Virus record (IMG/VR): IMGVR_UViG_2695420804_000018
Origin: a virus
Taxonomy: Duplodnaviria; Heunggongvirae; Uroviricota; Caudoviricetes
Length of the DNA: 11,055 nt
Strand: one strand, 5' to 3'
Shown here: piece after piece, positions 1,270 through 11,055 of the stretch
How the letters are laid out: each line of letters opens with the position of its first letter
Position numbering within the stretch: position 1 is the stretch's first letter
Position numbers and translations under genes: made by a program
The notes under the pieces: model-generated
The model's database searches: none
Told to the model about the DNA's origin: nothing
Seen by the model: only the letters and a program-made list of their open reading frames with translations

Positions 1270-2301
1270 ATGGAAGCTACTGTGGATTCGATTGATTTTC
1301 TGATCCGTAGTGAAGATGATTTTCTAAACTTTCTGGAAGAAATGAAAGCCCGAGAGGGGCTTGATTCTAAAGAGTTTATTTTCCCTAACGTAAAGTTTGC
1401 AGGCTGGCCATCCTTAGACATAAATGTAAAAGGAGAGCGGTATCATTCATCAATTACATCAGCAATGTTGTTTGGTATGTCAATGCTCAACGAGGAGATA
1501 CAGCGGGCGTTTGCAACCATACGATACGGATCGCAGAATCTTCAACGCTTGACTAATGAAGACAAGCAACGACTTGATATAAATTTTAAAATTAGCGAAG
1601 GTTCTAGTGATGCGGAAGGCACCACTGACAAGATCATCAACGCAGTAACTGATTTTTTGCGAGATACTATGTCTGGACTGAACGGCTGGCAGAAAATGCT
1701 TGTTATAATCACAATGGTTGGCGCGGCCAGCACATGTGGTTATCACTACATTTCAGAAAATGCCGTAACAGAAAGACATGCAACTGATCGGCAGGTTGAA
1801 ATTGCAAAAACCACATCCGATGGCATAAACAAAGCCATAGAAGCAACATTAGATTATAAAATCTATGGGAAATCAGCGATTAGCGATAAAGTTACTAGTC
1901 ACGGACAAGCAGGTAAAAGTGCTTTAGTGAAGCAATTAGCTGCTGATCCTACTGTCGAAACCGTGACTTTAGGAAATGAGAAACTAACACGACAAGACCT
2001 AAATACCTACAACAGCCGACAATCTGTAGATAGAGAACGTAAAGAACGAACTGATATATTTTCCATCAAAGGTGTAACCAGAACAGGGCCAACAAATCAG
2101 GATATTAATATTAACGTTGTTAGGGTCTCTAATGACGAATGCTTCACAATCAAAGCTTCAGCTGATGTTATCACCCAAGATGAGTTGACAGCTATTGTTG
2201 ACGCTTTGTCAAACAACTCTCATATTAAAATCAGTTACTTAGAGGTAATTGAAAAGGGTGCTGTTTCTATAGGTCAGTTCAACACTATTGTTTCAGAATA
2301 A
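1270..2301 (+). CDS. hypothetical protein, 343 aa, with a central hydrophobic segment; no family recognised
   Basis: Long ORF in AT-rich DNA (about 37% GC in the first 60 nt, counted by hand), where long open frames are unlikely by chance; AAGGA 7 nt upstream of ATG; residues ~143-161 (MLVIITMVGAASTCGYHYI) are hydrophobic; no Walker A, HEPN or other motif found by eye. Confidence 0.78.
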   Translation: MEATVDSIDFLIRSEDDFLNFLEEMKAREGLDSKEFIFPNVKFAGWPSLDINVKGERYHSSITSAMLFGMSMLNEEIQRAFATIRYGSQNLQRLTNEDKQRLDINFKISEGSSDAEGTTDKIINAVTDFLRDTMSGLNGWQKMLVIITMVGAASTCGYHYISENAVTERHATDRQVEIAKTTSDGINKAIEATLDYKIYGKSAISDKVTSHGQAGKSALVKQLAADPTVETVTLGNEKLTRQDLNTYNSRQSVDRERKERTDIFSIKGVTRTGPTNQDININVVRVSNDECFTIKASADVITQDELTAIVDALSNNSHIKISYLEVIEKGAVSIGQFNTIVSE

Positions 2302-2781: not shown

Positions 2782-2994
2782 CTATTTATGATGTAATCCG
2801 GACATCAGTTCATGGACAAGATTATCTCTTTCATTGTGTTGCAACCGTAAATGCATAGCAAAAAGGTGAGCACTATCCTCATTCCTCTTCAAGCCATGCT
2901 GTTCAAGATACCCGAAAAAACGGCTTCTCTTATCCGCTATTTCCTGAGTCTGACGTGCAACATTTACCAAATTTTCTAGCGTTTTTCTTGGCAT
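2782..2994 (-). CDS. small ORF downstream of invertase (first 63 codons conserved in both copies, then divergent tail); unknown function, possibly a 3'-truncated gene
   Basis: AGGAGG 8 nt upstream of ATG (reverse complement of 2995-3010); N-terminus MPRKTLENLVNVARQTQEIADKRSRFFGYLEQHGLKRNED...; the reading frame crosses the module boundary at 2807, so the C-terminus differs between copies. Confidence 0.45.
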   Translation of the reverse strand: MPRKTLENLVNVARQTQEIADKRSRFFGYLEQHGLKRNEDSAHLFAMHLRLQHNERDNLVHELMSGLHHK

Positions 2995-3192
2995 ACTATT
3001 TCCTCCTGAAATTGTTGTAATTCACTAGGATATTCATTTTAATTTGTATCATTTAGTACCAAAACCGCTATCAATTAACAAAGCCATCGTTGTGGTTTAC
3101 CTTGCAGCCGTTTTTTGTCATTGACTCTATGTGAAAATAATGAATCATCATGAGATTGGCTCACACGTTCTTGAATTCGACGAGCTGTGTCT

Positions 3193-3747
3193 TTATTTAT
3201 CTCCTGCCGGAAACCTCTGATACAAAGTCGATACGCCAACATCATAGATAATCGCAACTTTCTGGCGCGGAACTCCTGATGCAATTAATCGTCCGGCTTG
3301 TGCCCATTGTTCTGGTGTAAGTTTGGGACGACGTCCACCAATTCGTCCCTGTGCGCGAGCAGCTTCCAGTCCAGCTTTTGTTCGTTCAACAATCAGTTCT
3401 CGTTCCATTTCAGCCAGGGCCCCCATCACATGAAAGAAAAAGCGCCCCATTGGGGTACTGGTATCAATTGAATCCGTCAGACTACGAAAGTTGATGCCTC
3501 GTTCGCGCAACTCCTCCACCAGCACGACAAGATGCCGCATACTGCGCCCCAGTCGGTCCAGTTTCCAGACCACCAGCGTATCGCCTGCCGATAATGTCCT
3601 GAGCAGTTTTTTCAGTCCCGGCCTTTCGGACTTTGTACCGCTTATCTTGTCTTCAAAAATCAGCTCGCATCCTGCACAGTTCAGCGCATTACGTTGTAGA
3701 TCTGTGTTCTGGTCATTTGTTGACACACGTACATAGCCAATAAGCAT
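3193..3747 (-). CDS. site-specific DNA invertase, serine recombinase of the Gin/Hin/Pin/Cin family, 184 aa
   Basis: MLIGYVRVSTNDQNTDLQRNAL... gives the resolvase/invertase catalytic N-terminus with the active-site Ser in VRVST, plus a C-terminal HTH region (GVPRQKVAIIYDVGVSTLYQRF); start taken at MLIGY (AGGGAG upstream) rather than the upstream in-frame ATG of the ORF track; strongly resembles e14 Pin as I recall it. Confidence 0.93.
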   Translation of the reverse strand: MLIGYVRVSTNDQNTDLQRNALNCAGCELIFEDKISGTKSERPGLKKLLRTLSAGDTLVVWKLDRLGRSMRHLVVLVEELRERGINFRSLTDSIDTSTPMGRFFFHVMGALAEMERELIVERTKAGLEAARAQGRIGGRRPKLTPEQWAQAGRLIASGVPRQKVAIIYDVGVSTLYQRFPAGDK

Positions 3748-3801
3748 GGTAGATCTCCCTGACAAAAGCAGGAATGATGCCATTTGCTCGTTATTTCTGC
3801 A

Positions 3802-5557
<1,756 letters not shown>

Positions 5558-5560
5558 TCC

Positions 5561-6322
5561 ATGCATCGTATAGACACGAAAACCGCGCAGAAGGATAAGT
5601 TCGGCGCGGGTAAGAACGGTTTTACCCGTGGTAACCCCCAGACCGGCACACCTGCCACCGATCTGGATGATGACTACTTTGACATGTTGCAGGAAGAACT
5701 CTGCAGCGTGGTGGAGGCATCCGGTGCCAGCCTGGAGAAGGGGCGGCATGACCAGCTGCTTACCGCGCTTCGTGCGCTGCTGTTAAGCCGCAAGAATCCG
5801 TTTGGCGATATCAAATCTGATGGCACGGTGAAAACGGCTCTCGAAAACCTTGGTTTGGGAGAAGGTTCGGCATTACCCGTTGGTGTGCCTGTTCCGTGGC
5901 CTTCCGCCACTCCGCCAACGGGGTGGCTAAAATGTAACGGAGCAGTATTTTCTTCTGAAAAGTACCCAAATCTGGCAAAGGCTTACCCAACATTAAAATT
6001 ACCAGATTTACGCGGTGAATTTATTCGTGGCTGGGATGATGGGCGCGGGATTGACTCTGGTCGTAACTTATTATCTGCACAGAATGATGCAATTCAGAAT
6101 ATTGTTGGTTCTTTTGGGCGTACCCAGCTTTTTAGAGACGTACTTAGTTCAGGGCCATTTAGTCAACATGGGCAAGTATTATCTACAGGTCTAAAGGAAG
6201 CCGCAATTATTGAGGGTTATGGCGCTTATAACTGGACATTCGACGCATCTCGCTCAGTTCGCACAGCATCTGAAACCCGCTCCCGTAACATCGCCTTTAA
6301 TTATATTGTGAGGGCTGCATGA
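5561..6322 (+). CDS. phage tail-fibre protein: constant N-terminal domain (Sc, to about 5864) fused to variable C-terminal cassette Sv
   Basis: GGAG 6 nt upstream of ATG; [43 protein letters not shown]... is a typical tail-fibre N-terminal domain; a crossover site sits at the GLGE junction; the stop overlaps the start of the assembly gene (ATGA). Confidence 0.88.
5838..5863. other. hix/gix-like crossover site inside the tail-fibre gene (Sc/Sv junction)
   Basis: CTCTCGAAAACC-TT-GGTTTGGGAGAA; the reverse complement TTCTCCCAAACC-AA-GGTTTTCGAGAG matches hixL at about 19 of 26 positions; encodes ALENLGLGE. Confidence 0.75.
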
Positions 6323-6468
6323 TAAGTAAAGCTGTATTAAATAATGAACTCATCGCCACAAAGGCCGGAGACATTACCGTTTATAATTATGATGGTGAAA
6401 CACGGGAATATATTTCCACATCAACTGAATATCTTGCTGTGGGTGTTGGTATCCCGGCATGTTCCTGT
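5850..6468. repeat. 619-bp direct repeat (site inside half + Sv + U 5' part); partner is 9048-9666
   Basis: Offset 3198; identical ORF products (Sv and U codons 1-50). Confidence 0.85.
6319..6468 (+). pseudogene. tail-fibre assembly protein U, N-terminal 50 codons only, interrupted by pin module copy 2
   Basis: Identical to codons 1-50 of the full gene at 9517-10122; diverges at 6469 where the module begins. Confidence 0.75.
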
Positions 6469-6657
6469 AAGTTCATGGACAAGATTATCTCTTTCATTGT
6501 GTTGCAACCGTAAATGCATAGCAAAAAGGTGAGCACTATCCTCATTCCTCTTCAAGCCATGCTGTTCAAGATACCCGAAAAAACGGCTTCTCTTATCCGC
6601 TATTTCCTGAGTCTGACGTGCAACATTTACCAAATTTTCTAGCGTTTTTCTTGGCAT
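6421..6657 (-). CDS. small ORF downstream of invertase, copy 2 (same first 63 codons, different C-terminal tail)
   Basis: Same start and AGGAGG as copy 1; the tail (...TGTCRDTNTHSKIFS) comes from the reverse complement of U sequence beyond the module boundary. Confidence 0.4.
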   Translation of the reverse strand: MPRKTLENLVNVARQTQEIADKRSRFFGYLEQHGLKRNEDSAHLFAMHLRLQHNERDNLVHELTGTCRDTNTHSKIFS

Positions 6658-6855
6658 ACTATTTCCTCCTGAAATTGTTGTAATTCACTAGGATATTCAT
6701 TTTAATTTGTATCATTTAGTACCAAAACCGCTATCAATTAACAAAGCCATCGTTGTGGTTTACCTTGCAGCCGTTTTTTGTCATTGACTCTATGTGAAAA
6801 TAATGAATCATCATGAGATTGGCTCACACGTTCTTGAATTCGACGAGCTGTGTCT

Positions 6856-7410
6856 TTATTTATCTCCTGCCGGAAACCTCTGATACAAAGTCGATACGCC
6901 AACATCATAGATAATCGCAACTTTCTGGCGCGGAACTCCTGATGCAATTAATCGTCCGGCTTGTGCCCATTGTTCTGGTGTAAGTTTGGGACGACGTCCA
7001 CCAATTCGTCCCTGTGCGCGAGCAGCTTCCAGTCCAGCTTTTGTTCGTTCAACAATCAGTTCTCGTTCCATTTCAGCCAGGGCCCCCATCACATGAAAGA
7101 AAAAGCGCCCCATTGGGGTACTGGTATCAATTGAATCCGTCAGACTACGAAAGTTGATGCCTCGTTCGCGCAACTCCTCCACCAGCACGACAAGATGCCG
7201 CATACTGCGCCCCAGTCGGTCCAGTTTCCAGACCACCAGCGTATCGCCTGCCGATAATGTCCTGAGCAGTTTTTTCAGTCCCGGCCTTTCGGACTTTGTA
7301 CCGCTTATCTTGTCTTCAAAAATCAGCTCGCATCCTGCACAGTTCAGCGCATTACGTTGTAGATCTGTGTTCTGGTCATTTGTTGACACACGTACATAGC
7401 CAATAAGCAT
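6856..7410 (-). CDS. site-specific DNA invertase (Gin/Hin/Pin/Cin family), copy 2, 184 aa
   Basis: Identical to 3193-3747. Confidence 0.93.
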   Translation of the reverse strand: MLIGYVRVSTNDQNTDLQRNALNCAGCELIFEDKISGTKSERPGLKKLLRTLSAGDTLVVWKLDRLGRSMRHLVVLVEELRERGINFRSLTDSIDTSTPMGRFFFHVMGALAEMERELIVERTKAGLEAARAQGRIGGRRPKLTPEQWAQAGRLIASGVPRQKVAIIYDVGVSTLYQRFPAGDK

Positions 7411-7464
7411 GGTAGATCTCCCTGACAAAAGCAGGAATGATGCCATTTGCTCGTTATTTCTGCA

Positions 7465-7490
7465 TTTTCATAAACGTTGGTTTGGGAGAA
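7465..7490. other. hix/gix-like crossover site (invertase-proximal, copy 2)
   Basis: Same 26-bp sequence as 3802-3827; here it abuts the Sv' cassette. Confidence 0.7.
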
Positions 7491-7491
7491 G

Positions 7492-7931
7492 CGGCAAAAC
7501 GAAATGTGGGCAACGGGGAAAACCAAATCCCTGATATGTCTTTCTGGACGGTTACTGGTGGCAATGGAAATTTTGTGATTCGTCAACCTGACGGGCTAAT
7601 CATTCAGATGGTTACTGTAAGTATAAGCGGTCCAGTGGCGATGAATGGAATGACTGATAATGCTTATGCCATTACAGGTTCTAATAAGTCTTATATTGCC
7701 ACAGCCACATTGCCCTTTGTATTTCCTAATAAGGTGCTGGGCGTTATCCCTCTGGTATCAACAACAGCTTATGGTGGTGTATCCAGTAATATTACAGGTT
7801 CATACGCGACGGCGGTTTGTTCTTTTGCCGCTGTCAGGGGGAATAATACGATTGTGTTCAAAGTCGACAAACCACTGAATGCAGCCTTTCCTTCAGATAC
7901 CAGCGTCTCAGCGTTAATCATTGGACGGTAA
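7492..7931 (+). other. tail-fibre variable C-terminal cassette Sv' with no constant region upstream (silent cassette)
   Basis: Encodes [21 protein letters not shown]...ALIIGR, identical to the C-terminus of the - strand tail-fibre gene at 10540-10979; preceded by a crossover site instead of Sc. Confidence 0.7.
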
Positions 7932-7933
7932 GA

Positions 7934-8377
7934 ATGAACTCAGTATTCTTTTCACCCGCAAGTAAAAGTTTTTATCTGCAAGAATTGTTTCCAGAATATG
8001 AGGATGCGGGAACGCTTCCTGATGATGTTATTGAAATTACCAGAGAAACATATGAGCAATTTCTTGGGCTGCATCCAGAAGGGAAAGAAATTGGCGCTGA
8101 CAGTTCAGGACGGCCAATATGGATTAATTCCCCGCCGCCTTCAAAAGAGGATGAGATGCTGGCGGCTGAAATGAAAAAGATATCTTTGGTTTCAGAAGTC
8201 AATACCTACATCAATACCCATCAGTGGCCTGGCAAAGCTGCTATTGGTCGTCTGAAAGGTTACGAGCTGGAACAATATAATTTATGGCTGGATTATCTGG
8301 ACGCACTGGAACTGGTTGATACCTCCAGTGCTCCAGATATTGAATGGCCTACGCCTCCGGTAGTTCAGGCCAGATGA
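7934..8377 (+). CDS. tail-fibre assembly protein U' (alternative chaperone), 147 aa
   Basis: MNSVFFSPASKSF...; C-terminus LWLDYLDALELVDTSSAPDIEWPTPP is the conserved Tfa motif; identical to 10094-10537 on the opposite strand. Confidence 0.85.
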   Translation: MNSVFFSPASKSFYLQELFPEYEDAGTLPDDVIEITRETYEQFLGLHPEGKEIGADSSGRPIWINSPPPSKEDEMLAAEMKKISLVSEVNTYINTHQWPGKAAIGRLKGYELEQYNLWLDYLDALELVDTSSAPDIEWPTPPVVQAR

Positions 8378-8981
8378 CATCCGGCGCGGTGCTGGTATCT
8401 GTTGCAGTCACCGCGTCAATGTAATCCAGCACAGCGTTAAGCCGGGTTGTTTCTGCCTGCGTCAGCTTCCGCCCGGCCTGCAATTTCAGCTGAATCAGAC
8501 TAATGGAAGCCATAGCAGCATCAATCAGTGACTGGCGCCGTACTTCTGCCGCGTCTACTGCGGCGTTATGCTGTGCCTCAGTATCGGTCACCCATTTCTC
8601 ACCATCCCATTTATCGTATGACGTTAACGGGGCGATAGTGGTTGTATTTTCAGGACCCATCACATGAAAGAAAAAGCGCCCCATTGGGGTACTGGTATCA
8701 ATTGAATCCGTCAGACTACGAAAGTTGATGCCTCGTTCGCGCAACTCCTCCACCAGCACGACAAGATGCCGCATACTGCGCCCCAGTCGGTCCAGTTTCC
8801 AGACCACCAGCGTATCGCCTGCCGATAATGTCCTGAGCAGTTTTTTCAGTCCCGGCCTTTCGGACTTTGTACCGCTTATCTTGTCTTCAAAAATCAGCTC
8901 GCATCCTGCACAGTTCAGCGCATTACGTTGTAGATCTGTGTTCTGGTCATTTGTTGACACACGTACATAGCCAATAAGCAT
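8349..8981 (-). pseudogene. chimeric ORF: invertase codons 1-109 fused in frame to tail-fibre assembly protein U codons 101-201
   Basis: ...MGRFFFHVMG | PENTTTIAPLTSYDKWDGEKW...WPELPEA; nucleotide junction at 8655/8656 with short CAGG-type microhomology; lacks the invertase C-terminal HTH. Confidence 0.7.
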
Positions 8982-9062
8982 GGTAGATCTCCCTGACAAA
9001 AGCAGGAATGATGCCATTTGCTCGTTATTTCTGCATTTTCATAAACGTTGGTTTGGGAGAAG
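8656..9062. repeat. pin module partial copy 3 (407 bp: invertase 5' part, upstream region, crossover site)
   Basis: Identical by eye to 3422-3828 and 7085-7491. Confidence 0.88.
9036..9061. other. hix/gix-like crossover site (invertase-proximal, copy 3)
   Basis: Same sequence as 3802-3827; here it abuts the Sv cassette. Confidence 0.7.
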
Positions 9063-9520
9063 GTTCGGCATTACCCGTTGGTGTGCCTGTTCCGTGGCCT
9101 TCCGCCACTCCGCCAACGGGGTGGCTAAAATGTAACGGAGCAGTATTTTCTTCTGAAAAGTACCCAAATCTGGCAAAGGCTTACCCAACATTAAAATTAC
9201 CAGATTTACGCGGTGAATTTATTCGTGGCTGGGATGATGGGCGCGGGATTGACTCTGGTCGTAACTTATTATCTGCACAGAATGATGCAATTCAGAATAT
9301 TGTTGGTTCTTTTGGGCGTACCCAGCTTTTTAGAGACGTACTTAGTTCAGGGCCATTTAGTCAACATGGGCAAGTATTATCTACAGGTCTAAAGGAAGCC
9401 GCAATTATTGAGGGTTATGGCGCTTATAACTGGACATTCGACGCATCTCGCTCAGTTCGCACAGCATCTGAAACCCGCTCCCGTAACATCGCCTTTAATT
9501 ATATTGTGAGGGCTGCATGA
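9063..9520 (+). other. tail-fibre variable C-terminal cassette Sv, second copy, without constant region
   Basis: Identical to 5865-6322 ([21 protein letters not shown]...IVRAA). Confidence 0.7.
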
Positions 9521-10122
9521 TAAGTAAAGCTGTATTAAATAATGAACTCATCGCCACAAAGGCCGGAGACATTACCGTTTATAATTATGATGGTGAAACA
9601 CGGGAATATATTTCCACATCAACTGAATATCTTGCTGTGGGTGTTGGTATCCCGGCATGTTCCTGTTTAGATGCTCCTGGCTCATATAAAGCTGGTTATG
9701 CAATTTGCCGTTCTGCAGATTTTAACTCATGGGAATATGTGCCAGACCATCGCGGTGAAATCGTCTATAGCACCGAAACAGGAGAATCAAAAGAAATCAC
9801 ACTTCCGGGTGATTACCCTGAAAATACAACCACTATCGCCCCGTTAACGTCATACGATAAATGGGATGGTGAGAAATGGGTGACCGATACTGAGGCACAG
9901 CATAACGCCGCAGTAGACGCGGCAGAAGTACGGCGCCAGTCACTGATTGATGCTGCTATGGCTTCCATTAGTCTGATTCAGCTGAAATTGCAGGCCGGGC
10001 GGAAGCTGACGCAGGCAGAAACAACCCGGCTTAACGCTGTGCTGGATTACATTGACGCGGTGACTGCAACAGATACCAGCACCGCGCCGGATGTCATCTG
10101 GCCTGAACTACCGGAGGCGTAG
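9517..10122 (+). CDS. tail-fibre assembly protein U, full length, 201 aa
   Basis: [27 protein letters not shown]...; C-terminal Tfa motif LDYIDAVTATDTSTAPDVIWPELPE; start overlaps the Sv stop (ATGA); 3' end overlaps convergent U' by 29 bp. Confidence 0.9.
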   Translation: MISKAVLNNELIATKAGDITVYNYDGETREYISTSTEYLAVGVGIPACSCLDAPGSYKAGYAICRSADFNSWEYVPDHRGEIVYSTETGESKEITLPGDYPENTTTIAPLTSYDKWDGEKWVTDTEAQHNAAVDAAEVRRQSLIDAAMASISLIQLKLQAGRKLTQAETTRLNAVLDYIDAVTATDTSTAPDVIWPELPEA

Positions 10123-10979
10123 GCCATTCAATATCTGGAGCACTGGAGGTATCAACCAGTTCCAGTGCGTCCAGATAATCCAGCCATAAATTATATTGTT
10201 CCAGCTCGTAACCTTTCAGACGACCAATAGCAGCTTTGCCAGGCCACTGATGGGTATTGATGTAGGTATTGACTTCTGAAACCAAAGATATCTTTTTCAT
10301 TTCAGCCGCCAGCATCTCATCCTCTTTTGAAGGCGGCGGGGAATTAATCCATATTGGCCGTCCTGAACTGTCAGCGCCAATTTCTTTCCCTTCTGGATGC
10401 AGCCCAAGAAATTGCTCATATGTTTCTCTGGTAATTTCAATAACATCATCAGGAAGCGTTCCCGCATCCTCATATTCTGGAAACAATTCTTGCAGATAAA
10501 AACTTTTACTTGCGGGTGAAAAGAATACTGAGTTCATTCTTACCGTCCAATGATTAACGCTGAGACGCTGGTATCTGAAGGAAAGGCTGCATTCAGTGGT
10601 TTGTCGACTTTGAACACAATCGTATTATTCCCCCTGACAGCGGCAAAAGAACAAACCGCCGTCGCGTATGAACCTGTAATATTACTGGATACACCACCAT
10701 AAGCTGTTGTTGATACCAGAGGGATAACGCCCAGCACCTTATTAGGAAATACAAAGGGCAATGTGGCTGTGGCAATATAAGACTTATTAGAACCTGTAAT
10801 GGCATAAGCATTATCAGTCATTCCATTCATCGCCACTGGACCGCTTATACTTACAGTAACCATCTGAATGATTAGCCCGTCAGGTTGACGAATCACAAAA
10901 TTTCCATTGCCACCAGTAACCGTCCAGAAAGACATATCAGGGATTTGGTTTTCCCCGTTGCCCACATTTCGTTTTGCCG
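9816..10979. repeat. right arm of the 1164-bp inverted repeat
   Basis: Reverse complement of 7492-8655. Confidence 0.85.
10094..10537 (-). CDS. tail-fibre assembly protein U', 147 aa
   Basis: Reverse-complement copy of 7934-8377; lies downstream of the - strand tail-fibre gene. Confidence 0.88.
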   Translation of the reverse strand: MNSVFFSPASKSFYLQELFPEYEDAGTLPDDVIEITRETYEQFLGLHPEGKEIGADSSGRPIWINSPPPSKEDEMLAAEMKKISLVSEVNTYINTHQWPGKAAIGRLKGYELEQYNLWLDYLDALELVDTSSAPDIEWPTPPVVQAR

Positions 10980-11055
10980 CTTCTCCCAAACCAAGGTTTT
11001 CGAGAGCCGTTTTCACCGTGCCATCAGATTTGATATCGCCAAACGGATTCTTGCG
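10540..11055 (-). CDS. phage tail-fibre protein (Sc + Sv'), 5' end beyond the window edge
   Basis: C-terminal Sv' cassette joined through a crossover site to the same constant-region sequence as 5789-5864 (...[21 protein letters not shown]); the ATG at 11016 in the ORF track is internal. Confidence 0.85.
10981..11006. other. hix/gix-like crossover site in inverted orientation (Sc/Sv' junction of the - strand gene)
   Basis: TTCTCCCAAACC-AA-GGTTTTCGAGAG, the exact reverse complement of the site at 5838-5863. Confidence 0.75.

Follow-up and report, generated by a model that had tools for sequence, protein, structure and literature searches.

Several described systems invite comparison with the prophage protein considered here. 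RexAB of phage lambda is an abortive-infection and exclusion operon transcribed with cI; it consists of two proteins, the soluble RexA and the four-helix membrane protein RexB, and the position adjacent to cI is the slot that rexAB fills in lambda. HK97 gp15 is the product of an accessory gene that lies between the tail-chaperone and tape-measure genes. P22 SieA, which blocks DNA delivery, is a protein of 162-164 aa with three predicted transmembrane helices (PMC10883804). SNIPE is a membrane-bound GIY-YIG nuclease defense, with an N-terminal helix and cytoplasmic DUF4041 and nuclease domains (bioRxiv 10.1101/2025.11.03.685801).

The stretch of DNA analyzed here (the window; 11,055 nucleotides, IMG/VR record IMGVR_UViG_2695420804_000018) opens with smpB (1-483) and continues with ssrA, the tmRNA gene located by ARAGORN (698-1060, + strand), a prophage integration site with a remnant on its 3' side. 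The first gene of that remnant, directly after ssrA, is a 343-aa open reading frame (1270-2301, + strand, from the ORF list), with a ribosome-binding site, AAGGA, 8 nt upstream of its ATG. The same DNA is found at 100% identity in E. coli 602687, where the product is WP_021530618.1 in RefSeq and is named "hypothetical protein." The protein can be divided into an N-terminal alpha/beta domain (1297-1665, +; about residues 10-132), a hydrophobic segment that is a candidate single transmembrane helix (1696-1752, +; residues 143-161), two long charged helices that would form a stalk or helical hairpin (1783-1941, +; residues 172-200 and 203-224, from AlphaFold2 secondary structure), and a C-terminal OB-fold domain (2032-2289, +; residues 255-340). 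The preliminary description of this DNA had split the protein at the hydrophobic segment into parts of about 140 and about 180 residues, and this is about right, with AlphaFold2 placing the N-terminal domain at 10-132, helices at 172-224, and a beta-rich domain at 231-340.

Set against the described systems, this architecture is unusual. Like lambda RexA/RexB, the family is carried by lysogens and has a (here predicted) membrane component, and many homologues sit in the same slot, just after cI in its direction of transcription and ahead of N; unlike RexAB, it is a single gene encoding a protein with one central hydrophobic helix, with no conserved partner. The Rex families of Pfam gave no match at E<=1 and NCBIfam gave no match, so that a search for RexAB homology came back empty. 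P22 SieA, HK97 gp15 and T4 Imm are likewise prophage-encoded inner-membrane proteins with no signal peptide that work singly and stop the delivery of DNA, which the 343-aa protein may also do; a homologue in Klebsiella oxytoca even occupies a slot in the tail cluster comparable to that of gp15. Those three proteins, however, are small and without large soluble domains, whereas members of the present family are of ~340 aa and have an N-terminal domain, central helix, stalk and OB-fold, and HMM library scans found no sequence similarity of the family to SieA, HK97 gp15 or T4 Imm. SNIPE shares the single gene and the one transmembrane helix, and its diversified non-membrane domains are thought to contact phage proteins at genome entry; it differs in that the helix of the 343-aa protein is central, and that no nuclease or DUF4041 was detected. 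A last likeness is to proteins built of a membrane anchor plus a stalk (ATP synthase subunit b, PilN/GspM-type proteins, FtsB/DivIC), in which a transmembrane helix is followed by a long charged helix; in these the helix is at the N-terminus, and there is neither an N-terminal domain ahead of it nor an OB-fold. The resemblance to DivIC was seen as a weak match to one distant homologue (P0147, E 0.13), far below curated cut-offs.

Whether the central segment is a membrane anchor is the question on which much of the interpretation turns. Read in frame, 1696-1752 (+) gives MLVIITMVGAASTCGYHYI (residues 143-161 of the 343-aa ORF), which forms the top 19-residue Kyte-Doolittle window of the protein at 1.41, against 0.71 for the next best elsewhere; an uncharged run of 20 residues around it is bounded by K142 and E163. 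The earlier observations that this is the sole long hydrophobic stretch and that charged residues flank it are thus both borne out. For a bitopic protein we looked for one hydrophobic segment with about 18-23 uncharged residues, a 19-residue Kyte-Doolittle mean of at least 1.6, and a Wimley-White octanol sum below 0, using the published hydropathy scale values. The window protein falls below the classical Kyte-Doolittle cut-off of 1.6 and passes on the Wimley-White sum (-3.9), while its simple Hessa sum is marginal (+3.7 kcal/mol). The helical hydrophobic moment of the segment is low (muH 0.17 at <H> 0.44; other helices of the protein, 0.22-0.75). Among composition-preserving shuffles, 45% reach a Kyte-Doolittle value of 1.41 and 18.5% reach a 20-residue uncharged run. 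In the window sequence alone, the segment is not beyond chance; its significance comes from conservation in the family.

That family is large. A word-indexed search returned 76 homologues, all of them "hypothetical," and a profile search over 1.84 billion cluster representatives (clusters at 50% identity) returned 841 representatives at E<=1e-3 and 499 at E<=1e-10, mostly of 320-350 aa. Among 203 full-length members, the top hydrophobic segment falls at the same relative position (0.42) in 98%; its median Kyte-Doolittle value is 1.82, with 77% at 1.6 or above, 97% give a negative Wimley-White octanol sum, and the median uncharged run is 19 residues, while the Hessa sum is 1 or less in only 22%. 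A lysine or arginine lies within six residues upstream of the segment in 90% of members, and a tryptophan or tyrosine marks its C-terminal end in 93%, as opposed to 9% for the N-terminal end. Pairwise identity within the segment is only 0.21 across the family and hydrophobicity is nonetheless kept; G157 is among the best-conserved columns of the family. The family segment is, in short, a non-amphipathic helix with interface-type flanks at a fixed position in a drifting sequence.

These family-wide features bear directly on a competing explanation, in which the protein is soluble and cytoplasmic, the helix is buried in the core of a monomer or in a homo-oligomeric bundle, with nucleic acid or a phage protein as the ligand of the OB-fold. 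The sub-threshold hydropathy of the window protein and the ease with which shuffled sequences reach it would suit such a protein, as would the weak charge asymmetry around the segment and the AlphaFold2 model, which, consulted as the preliminary description had proposed, does draw a helix at this place, although it spans only the 16 residues 139-154 and so only part of 143-161, and gives low confidence to 156-183. OB-folds are moreover classic single-stranded DNA binders, and some homologues have acidic tails like those of SSB. On the other hand, about 19-20 residues free of any charge, together with very low amphipathicity, would be unusual for a soluble helix when seen in 203 members; the segment is one of the stretches with the weakest sequence conservation and yet stays hydrophobic, whereas the packing residues of a core helix are usually conserved; the flanks, K/R before and W/Y after, are of the interface type; and the OB domain of the window protein is net acidic, as read from its sequence. 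A transmembrane helix fits better than a buried core helix, since position, length, hydrophobicity and flanks are kept in a highly divergent family while the sequence drifts, and we regard the soluble alternative as unlikely. The preferred reading of residues 143-161 as a single membrane anchor is accordingly a likely one at the level of the family. The earlier proposal of an anchor dividing the protein in two thus finds its support in family-wide position, length, hydrophobicity and flanks, and falters in the window protein taken singly, with its sub-threshold hydropathy and short predicted helix.

If the protein is inserted in the membrane, its orientation matters for any function. The N-terminus of the 343-aa protein is acidic and without a signal peptide, 140 residues ahead of the sole hydrophobic segment. 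In the family, the 5-residue flanks carry K+R of 1.38 on the N side versus 0.87 on the C side, and D+E of 0.53 versus 1.24; this bias is gone beyond about 8 flanking residues (8-15) and is reversed at 25. Cysteine makes up 0.1% of the C-terminal region versus 0.4% of the N-terminal domain, and the C-terminal regions that do contain Cys are few and mostly have an odd number. The acidic, signal-less N-terminus, the charges of the immediate flanks and the Cys-poor C-terminal region weakly favor an arrangement with the N-terminus in and the C-terminus out. SSB-like acidic tails in some distant homologues would suit a cytoplasmic C-terminus, and neither the charge and Cys counts nor the C-terminal tails decide the matter. 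Given membrane insertion, we consider the N-in/C-out arrangement fairly probable from these sequence features.

In the reverse arrangement the N-terminal domain would be periplasmic, and the stalk and OB-fold would lie under the membrane, where they could bind entering phage DNA or ejection proteins. That the OB-fold is similar to single-stranded DNA binders, that the C side carries more K+R when 20-25 residues are counted, and that acidic C-terminal tails occur in some homologues would all agree with it, and SNIPE is a precedent for cytoplasmic domains that are tethered to the membrane and act on injected DNA (bioRxiv 10.1101/2025.11.03.685801). Such a topology would nevertheless call for export of a folded, acidic N-terminal domain of ~135 residues with no signal peptide, and the immediate flanks favor N-in. 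Signal-less export of a folded acidic N-terminal domain is rare in bacteria. Further, the OB domain is net acidic and no nuclease or effector domain was found. We hold the reverse topology to be quite improbable, and continue with the N-in/C-out orientation.

The soluble parts differ in conservation. The N-terminal domain is the most conserved part of the protein, with motifs GWP, INVKG, NLQRLT..DK and EGSS, and no fold match was found for its conserved ~135 residues. The stalk helices (172-224), which follow the low-confidence linker at 156-183, have the lowest conservation in the protein. The C-terminal domain is a five-stranded barrel in the order strand 1-2-3, helix, strand 4-5, modeled with pLDDT of about 90; with its helix between strands 3 and 4 and its structural similarity to OB-fold proteins, it qualifies as an OB-fold and resembles single-stranded DNA binders. 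In four distant homologues (P0098, P0099, P0103, P0147) strongly acidic tails come right after the OB-fold (for example, ...SEDEDDEDEEA); these recall SSB and T7 gp2.5, and they bear on the membrane side of the C-terminus. The best-kept columns of the family hold G, L, F, W, I and P; residues of a catalytic type are nowhere invariant, and the window protein yielded no nuclease, DUF4041 or other catalytic or effector-type domain; judged by its sequence, the protein is probably not an enzyme.

Library searches place the family without naming its function. Neither Pfam nor NCBIfam gave a significant match for the 343-aa protein or for the 114-aa protein encoded beside it (see below), PADLOC-DB 2.0.0 returned zero families at E<=1 for either, and a wider Pfam scan, over 33 diverse members plus the homologues in phi458 and PhiR12, gave nothing significant. 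The one full-length match is to PHROG 6191 (residues 7-340 against 5-331 of the 338 profile positions, E=6.8e-38), which is the same family and carries no functional annotation. Run against all PDB sequences, the family profile met with weak matches only (E 0.03-0.6): ATP synthase subunit b, PilN and Tom20. Each of these consists of a membrane anchor plus a stalk helix, in keeping with an anchor in the present family; the matches are compositional. A GenBank record labels the PhiR12 homologue (26% identical) "T2SS GspM containing protein," a label that we set aside: PhiR12_1 has no Pfam family at E<=1, and a T2SSM match was seen in 0 of 33 diverse members.

Genomic context also bears on function. 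The homologues are solitary accessory genes of temperate phages in Enterobacterales and other Gammaproteobacteria. In phi458 (with a 25-nt gap), in PhiR12_1-5, and in Yersinia and metagenomic lambdoids, the gene comes next after cI, is read in the same direction and precedes N; this cI-adjacent arrangement recurs in at least 19 of 45 IMG/VR loci, as probed with only four cI types. Elsewhere (Enterobacter, Xenorhabdus, Cronobacter, and the window itself, at ssrA) homologues are found at the outer ends of prophages or islands, by the attachment site, and in Klebsiella oxytoca prophages the homologue is inside the tail gene cluster, where it follows a DUF6246 gene and stands two ORFs ahead of the tape-measure gene. 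No conserved partner gene was found beside the homologues, and they were never seen in a lysis cassette. Such variable positions (between cI and N, at prophage ends, in the tail region) are typical of mobile accessory genes rather than of core phage functions. In Cronobacter, an 82%-identical homologue (L013-L015) follows either a CbtA/CbeA toxin-antitoxin pair or a P2-like integrase; a second unannotated ORF of 343 aa (8157-9188), located ~1.1 kb downstream of the Cronobacter homologue, proved unrelated (BLASTP E 0.08).

At the window locus the gene has outlived its phage. It is present in 46 of 5,426 complete E. coli genomes at >=99% identity, and its persistence at this identity within a decayed remnant suggests that it is kept without a functional phage. 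A 114-aa ORF (2353-2697, +), 51 nt 3' of the 343-aa ORF, accompanies it in all 46, and a terminator-like hairpin (2725-2747, +) closes the two-gene unit. This ORF is absent beside homologues of the 343-aa gene at other loci, and its product had no match in the HMM libraries (Pfam, NCBIfam, PADLOC, PHROG), in phage records or in GTDB representative genomes; it is a companion specific to the E. coli ssrA locus, not a family-wide partner. The product is apparently all-helical and its gene shares the terminator hairpin with the 343-aa gene; it could be a locus-specific partner, for example, a regulator or immunity protein.

Beyond the hairpin lies the decayed prophage, with a pin invertase, tail-fiber cassettes and an IS3 element. 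The pin and tail-fiber region (2782-11016) has several 100%-identical copies in the window: a 300-nt block occurs three times (at 3422, 7085 and 8656), two further blocks are duplicated, inverted arms of 1183 nt lie at 7472-8654 and 9817-10999, and the ORF at 8349-9017 (-) is a chimera of a Pin N-terminus and a tail-fiber-assembly C-terminus. In the closest RefSeq genome pinE occurs once; set against it, the multiple copies make 2782-11016 look like several inversion states strung together, by assembly artifact or by real amplification. An IS3-family transposase, orfA (4614-4961) and orfB (3805-4494), occupies 3805-4961 (-), with a pin copy on one side and a ymfQ-like tail gene (4946-5557) on the other. 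Several IMG/VR "viral" contigs (L022-L025, L028) have the 343-aa gene at the same offset as the window (1270-2298), which indicates that prophage callers count smpB-ssrA and the remnant as viral sequence.

A role in defense has been raised before, by machine learning. In Table S10 of DefensePredictor (Science 2026), the cluster of WP_021530618.1, with member WP_001272876.1 (348 aa), has a mean log-odds of 6.86 (PMC13092281), above the cut-off of 4 used for listing, and WP_021530618.1 is the window protein itself. The cluster is labeled "Predicted novel defense gene," with neither an HHblits nor a Foldseek match (PMC13092281). Both accessions appear in Table S10 only and are absent from the supplementary tables of cloned and validated units (12 files, PMC13092281); among the validated proteins of Table S8, no transmembrane region is a single mid-protein helix (PMC13092281). 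The literature mentions WP_021530618.1 in that one place, and a search on the accession, the PHROG number, PhiR12 and phi458 found nothing on function. The defense idea is thus already in print, and the architecture of the protein has not previously been discussed. Table S5 also lists WP_001288169.1 (310 aa, log-odds 5.8), with a weak HHblits match to the OB-fold family BOF over residues 235-293 (PMC13092281); this E. coli "predicted novel defense gene" may have a related architecture.

That the family often occupies the lambda rexAB slot makes an anti-phage role likely for these prophage proteins, as far as sequence and context can indicate. The more specific earlier suggestion of an abortive-infection effector fares less evenly: the prophage accessory context, including the rexAB slot, and the machine-learning prediction agree with it, and the lack of any detected effector-type or catalytic domain does not. 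A membrane-anchored protein with some other role must also be weighed, whether in lysogenic conversion (as a host envelope or fitness factor), in control of induction, or in the lytic cycle (spanin-like, holin-regulating, or accessory to DNA entry). With periplasmic helices following a transmembrane anchor, the predicted layout would be reminiscent of an i-spanin, and one homologue context is inside a tail gene cluster. Accessory slots also hold non-defense cargo; lambda bor and lom are of this kind, and RexAB itself affects the lysis-lysogeny switch. The experimental validation rate of DefensePredictor was 45% overall, with 55% of candidates failing (PMC13092281). Counting against a non-defense role are the consistent absence from lysis cassettes and the positions, which vary as in mobile accessory genes, as well as the retention of the gene in the decayed remnant of 46 E. 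coli genomes and its high log-odds. We find this alternative doubtful, and return to a protective function.

From the observed sequence features, family conservation and genomic contexts, and from the predicted folds, we infer membrane insertion, topology, expression in the lysogen and an anti-phage function, along with every mechanistic step sketched here. Residues 143-161 would be the only membrane anchor of a single-pass inner-membrane protein, leaving the conserved N-terminal domain of 135 residues on the cytoplasmic side and the more variable helical stalk and OB-fold on the periplasmic side. The gene is probably expressed in the lysogen, and in many prophages it would be co-transcribed with cI, so that the lysogen would be protected against other phages at the inner membrane. 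There, the variable stalk and OB-fold, as the likely specificity part, may engage incoming tail-tip or ejection proteins, or a host entry factor; the N-terminal domain and the small-residue-rich helix would be the likely oligomerization or effector part. In one outcome, genome delivery would be blocked, amounting to superinfection exclusion of the SieA kind (PMC10883804); in another, membrane failure would be triggered through the conserved cytoplasmic domain and through the small-residue-rich helix associating with itself, amounting to abortive infection and cell death as with RexAB. Abortive infection is no more plausible than a block to the entry of phage DNA. The whole reading, in which lysogens make a bitopic inner-membrane protein that acts at the envelope against superinfecting phages, is offered tentatively, with a chance that we would put a little short of even. 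More speculative, and improbable in its full form, is a widespread single-gene immunity module of temperate phages that signals across the inner membrane, in which a fast-evolving periplasmic stalk and OB-fold would detect the tail-tip or ejection apparatus and a cytoplasmic domain of novel fold would execute exclusion or suicide, making it a one-protein functional counterpart of RexAB in the same cI-adjacent slot.

This is an uncharacterized family of unusual architecture in a well-known kind of genomic slot. Among the exclusion and abortive-infection proteins described so far, none is known to join a domain of novel fold to a single central membrane helix, a stalk and an OB-fold. If the family protects lysogens, it would be a common new cargo of the cI-adjacent lambdoid slot, spread over 841 clusters and lacking any Pfam domain; a defensive function would also give experimental meaning to one of roughly 1,000 untested DefensePredictor clusters, and provide a tractable one-gene model for the sensing of envelope events during phage entry. 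Should its role lie outside defense, this would still be a conserved, probably membrane-anchored protein that E. coli has retained in a decayed prophage beside ssrA.
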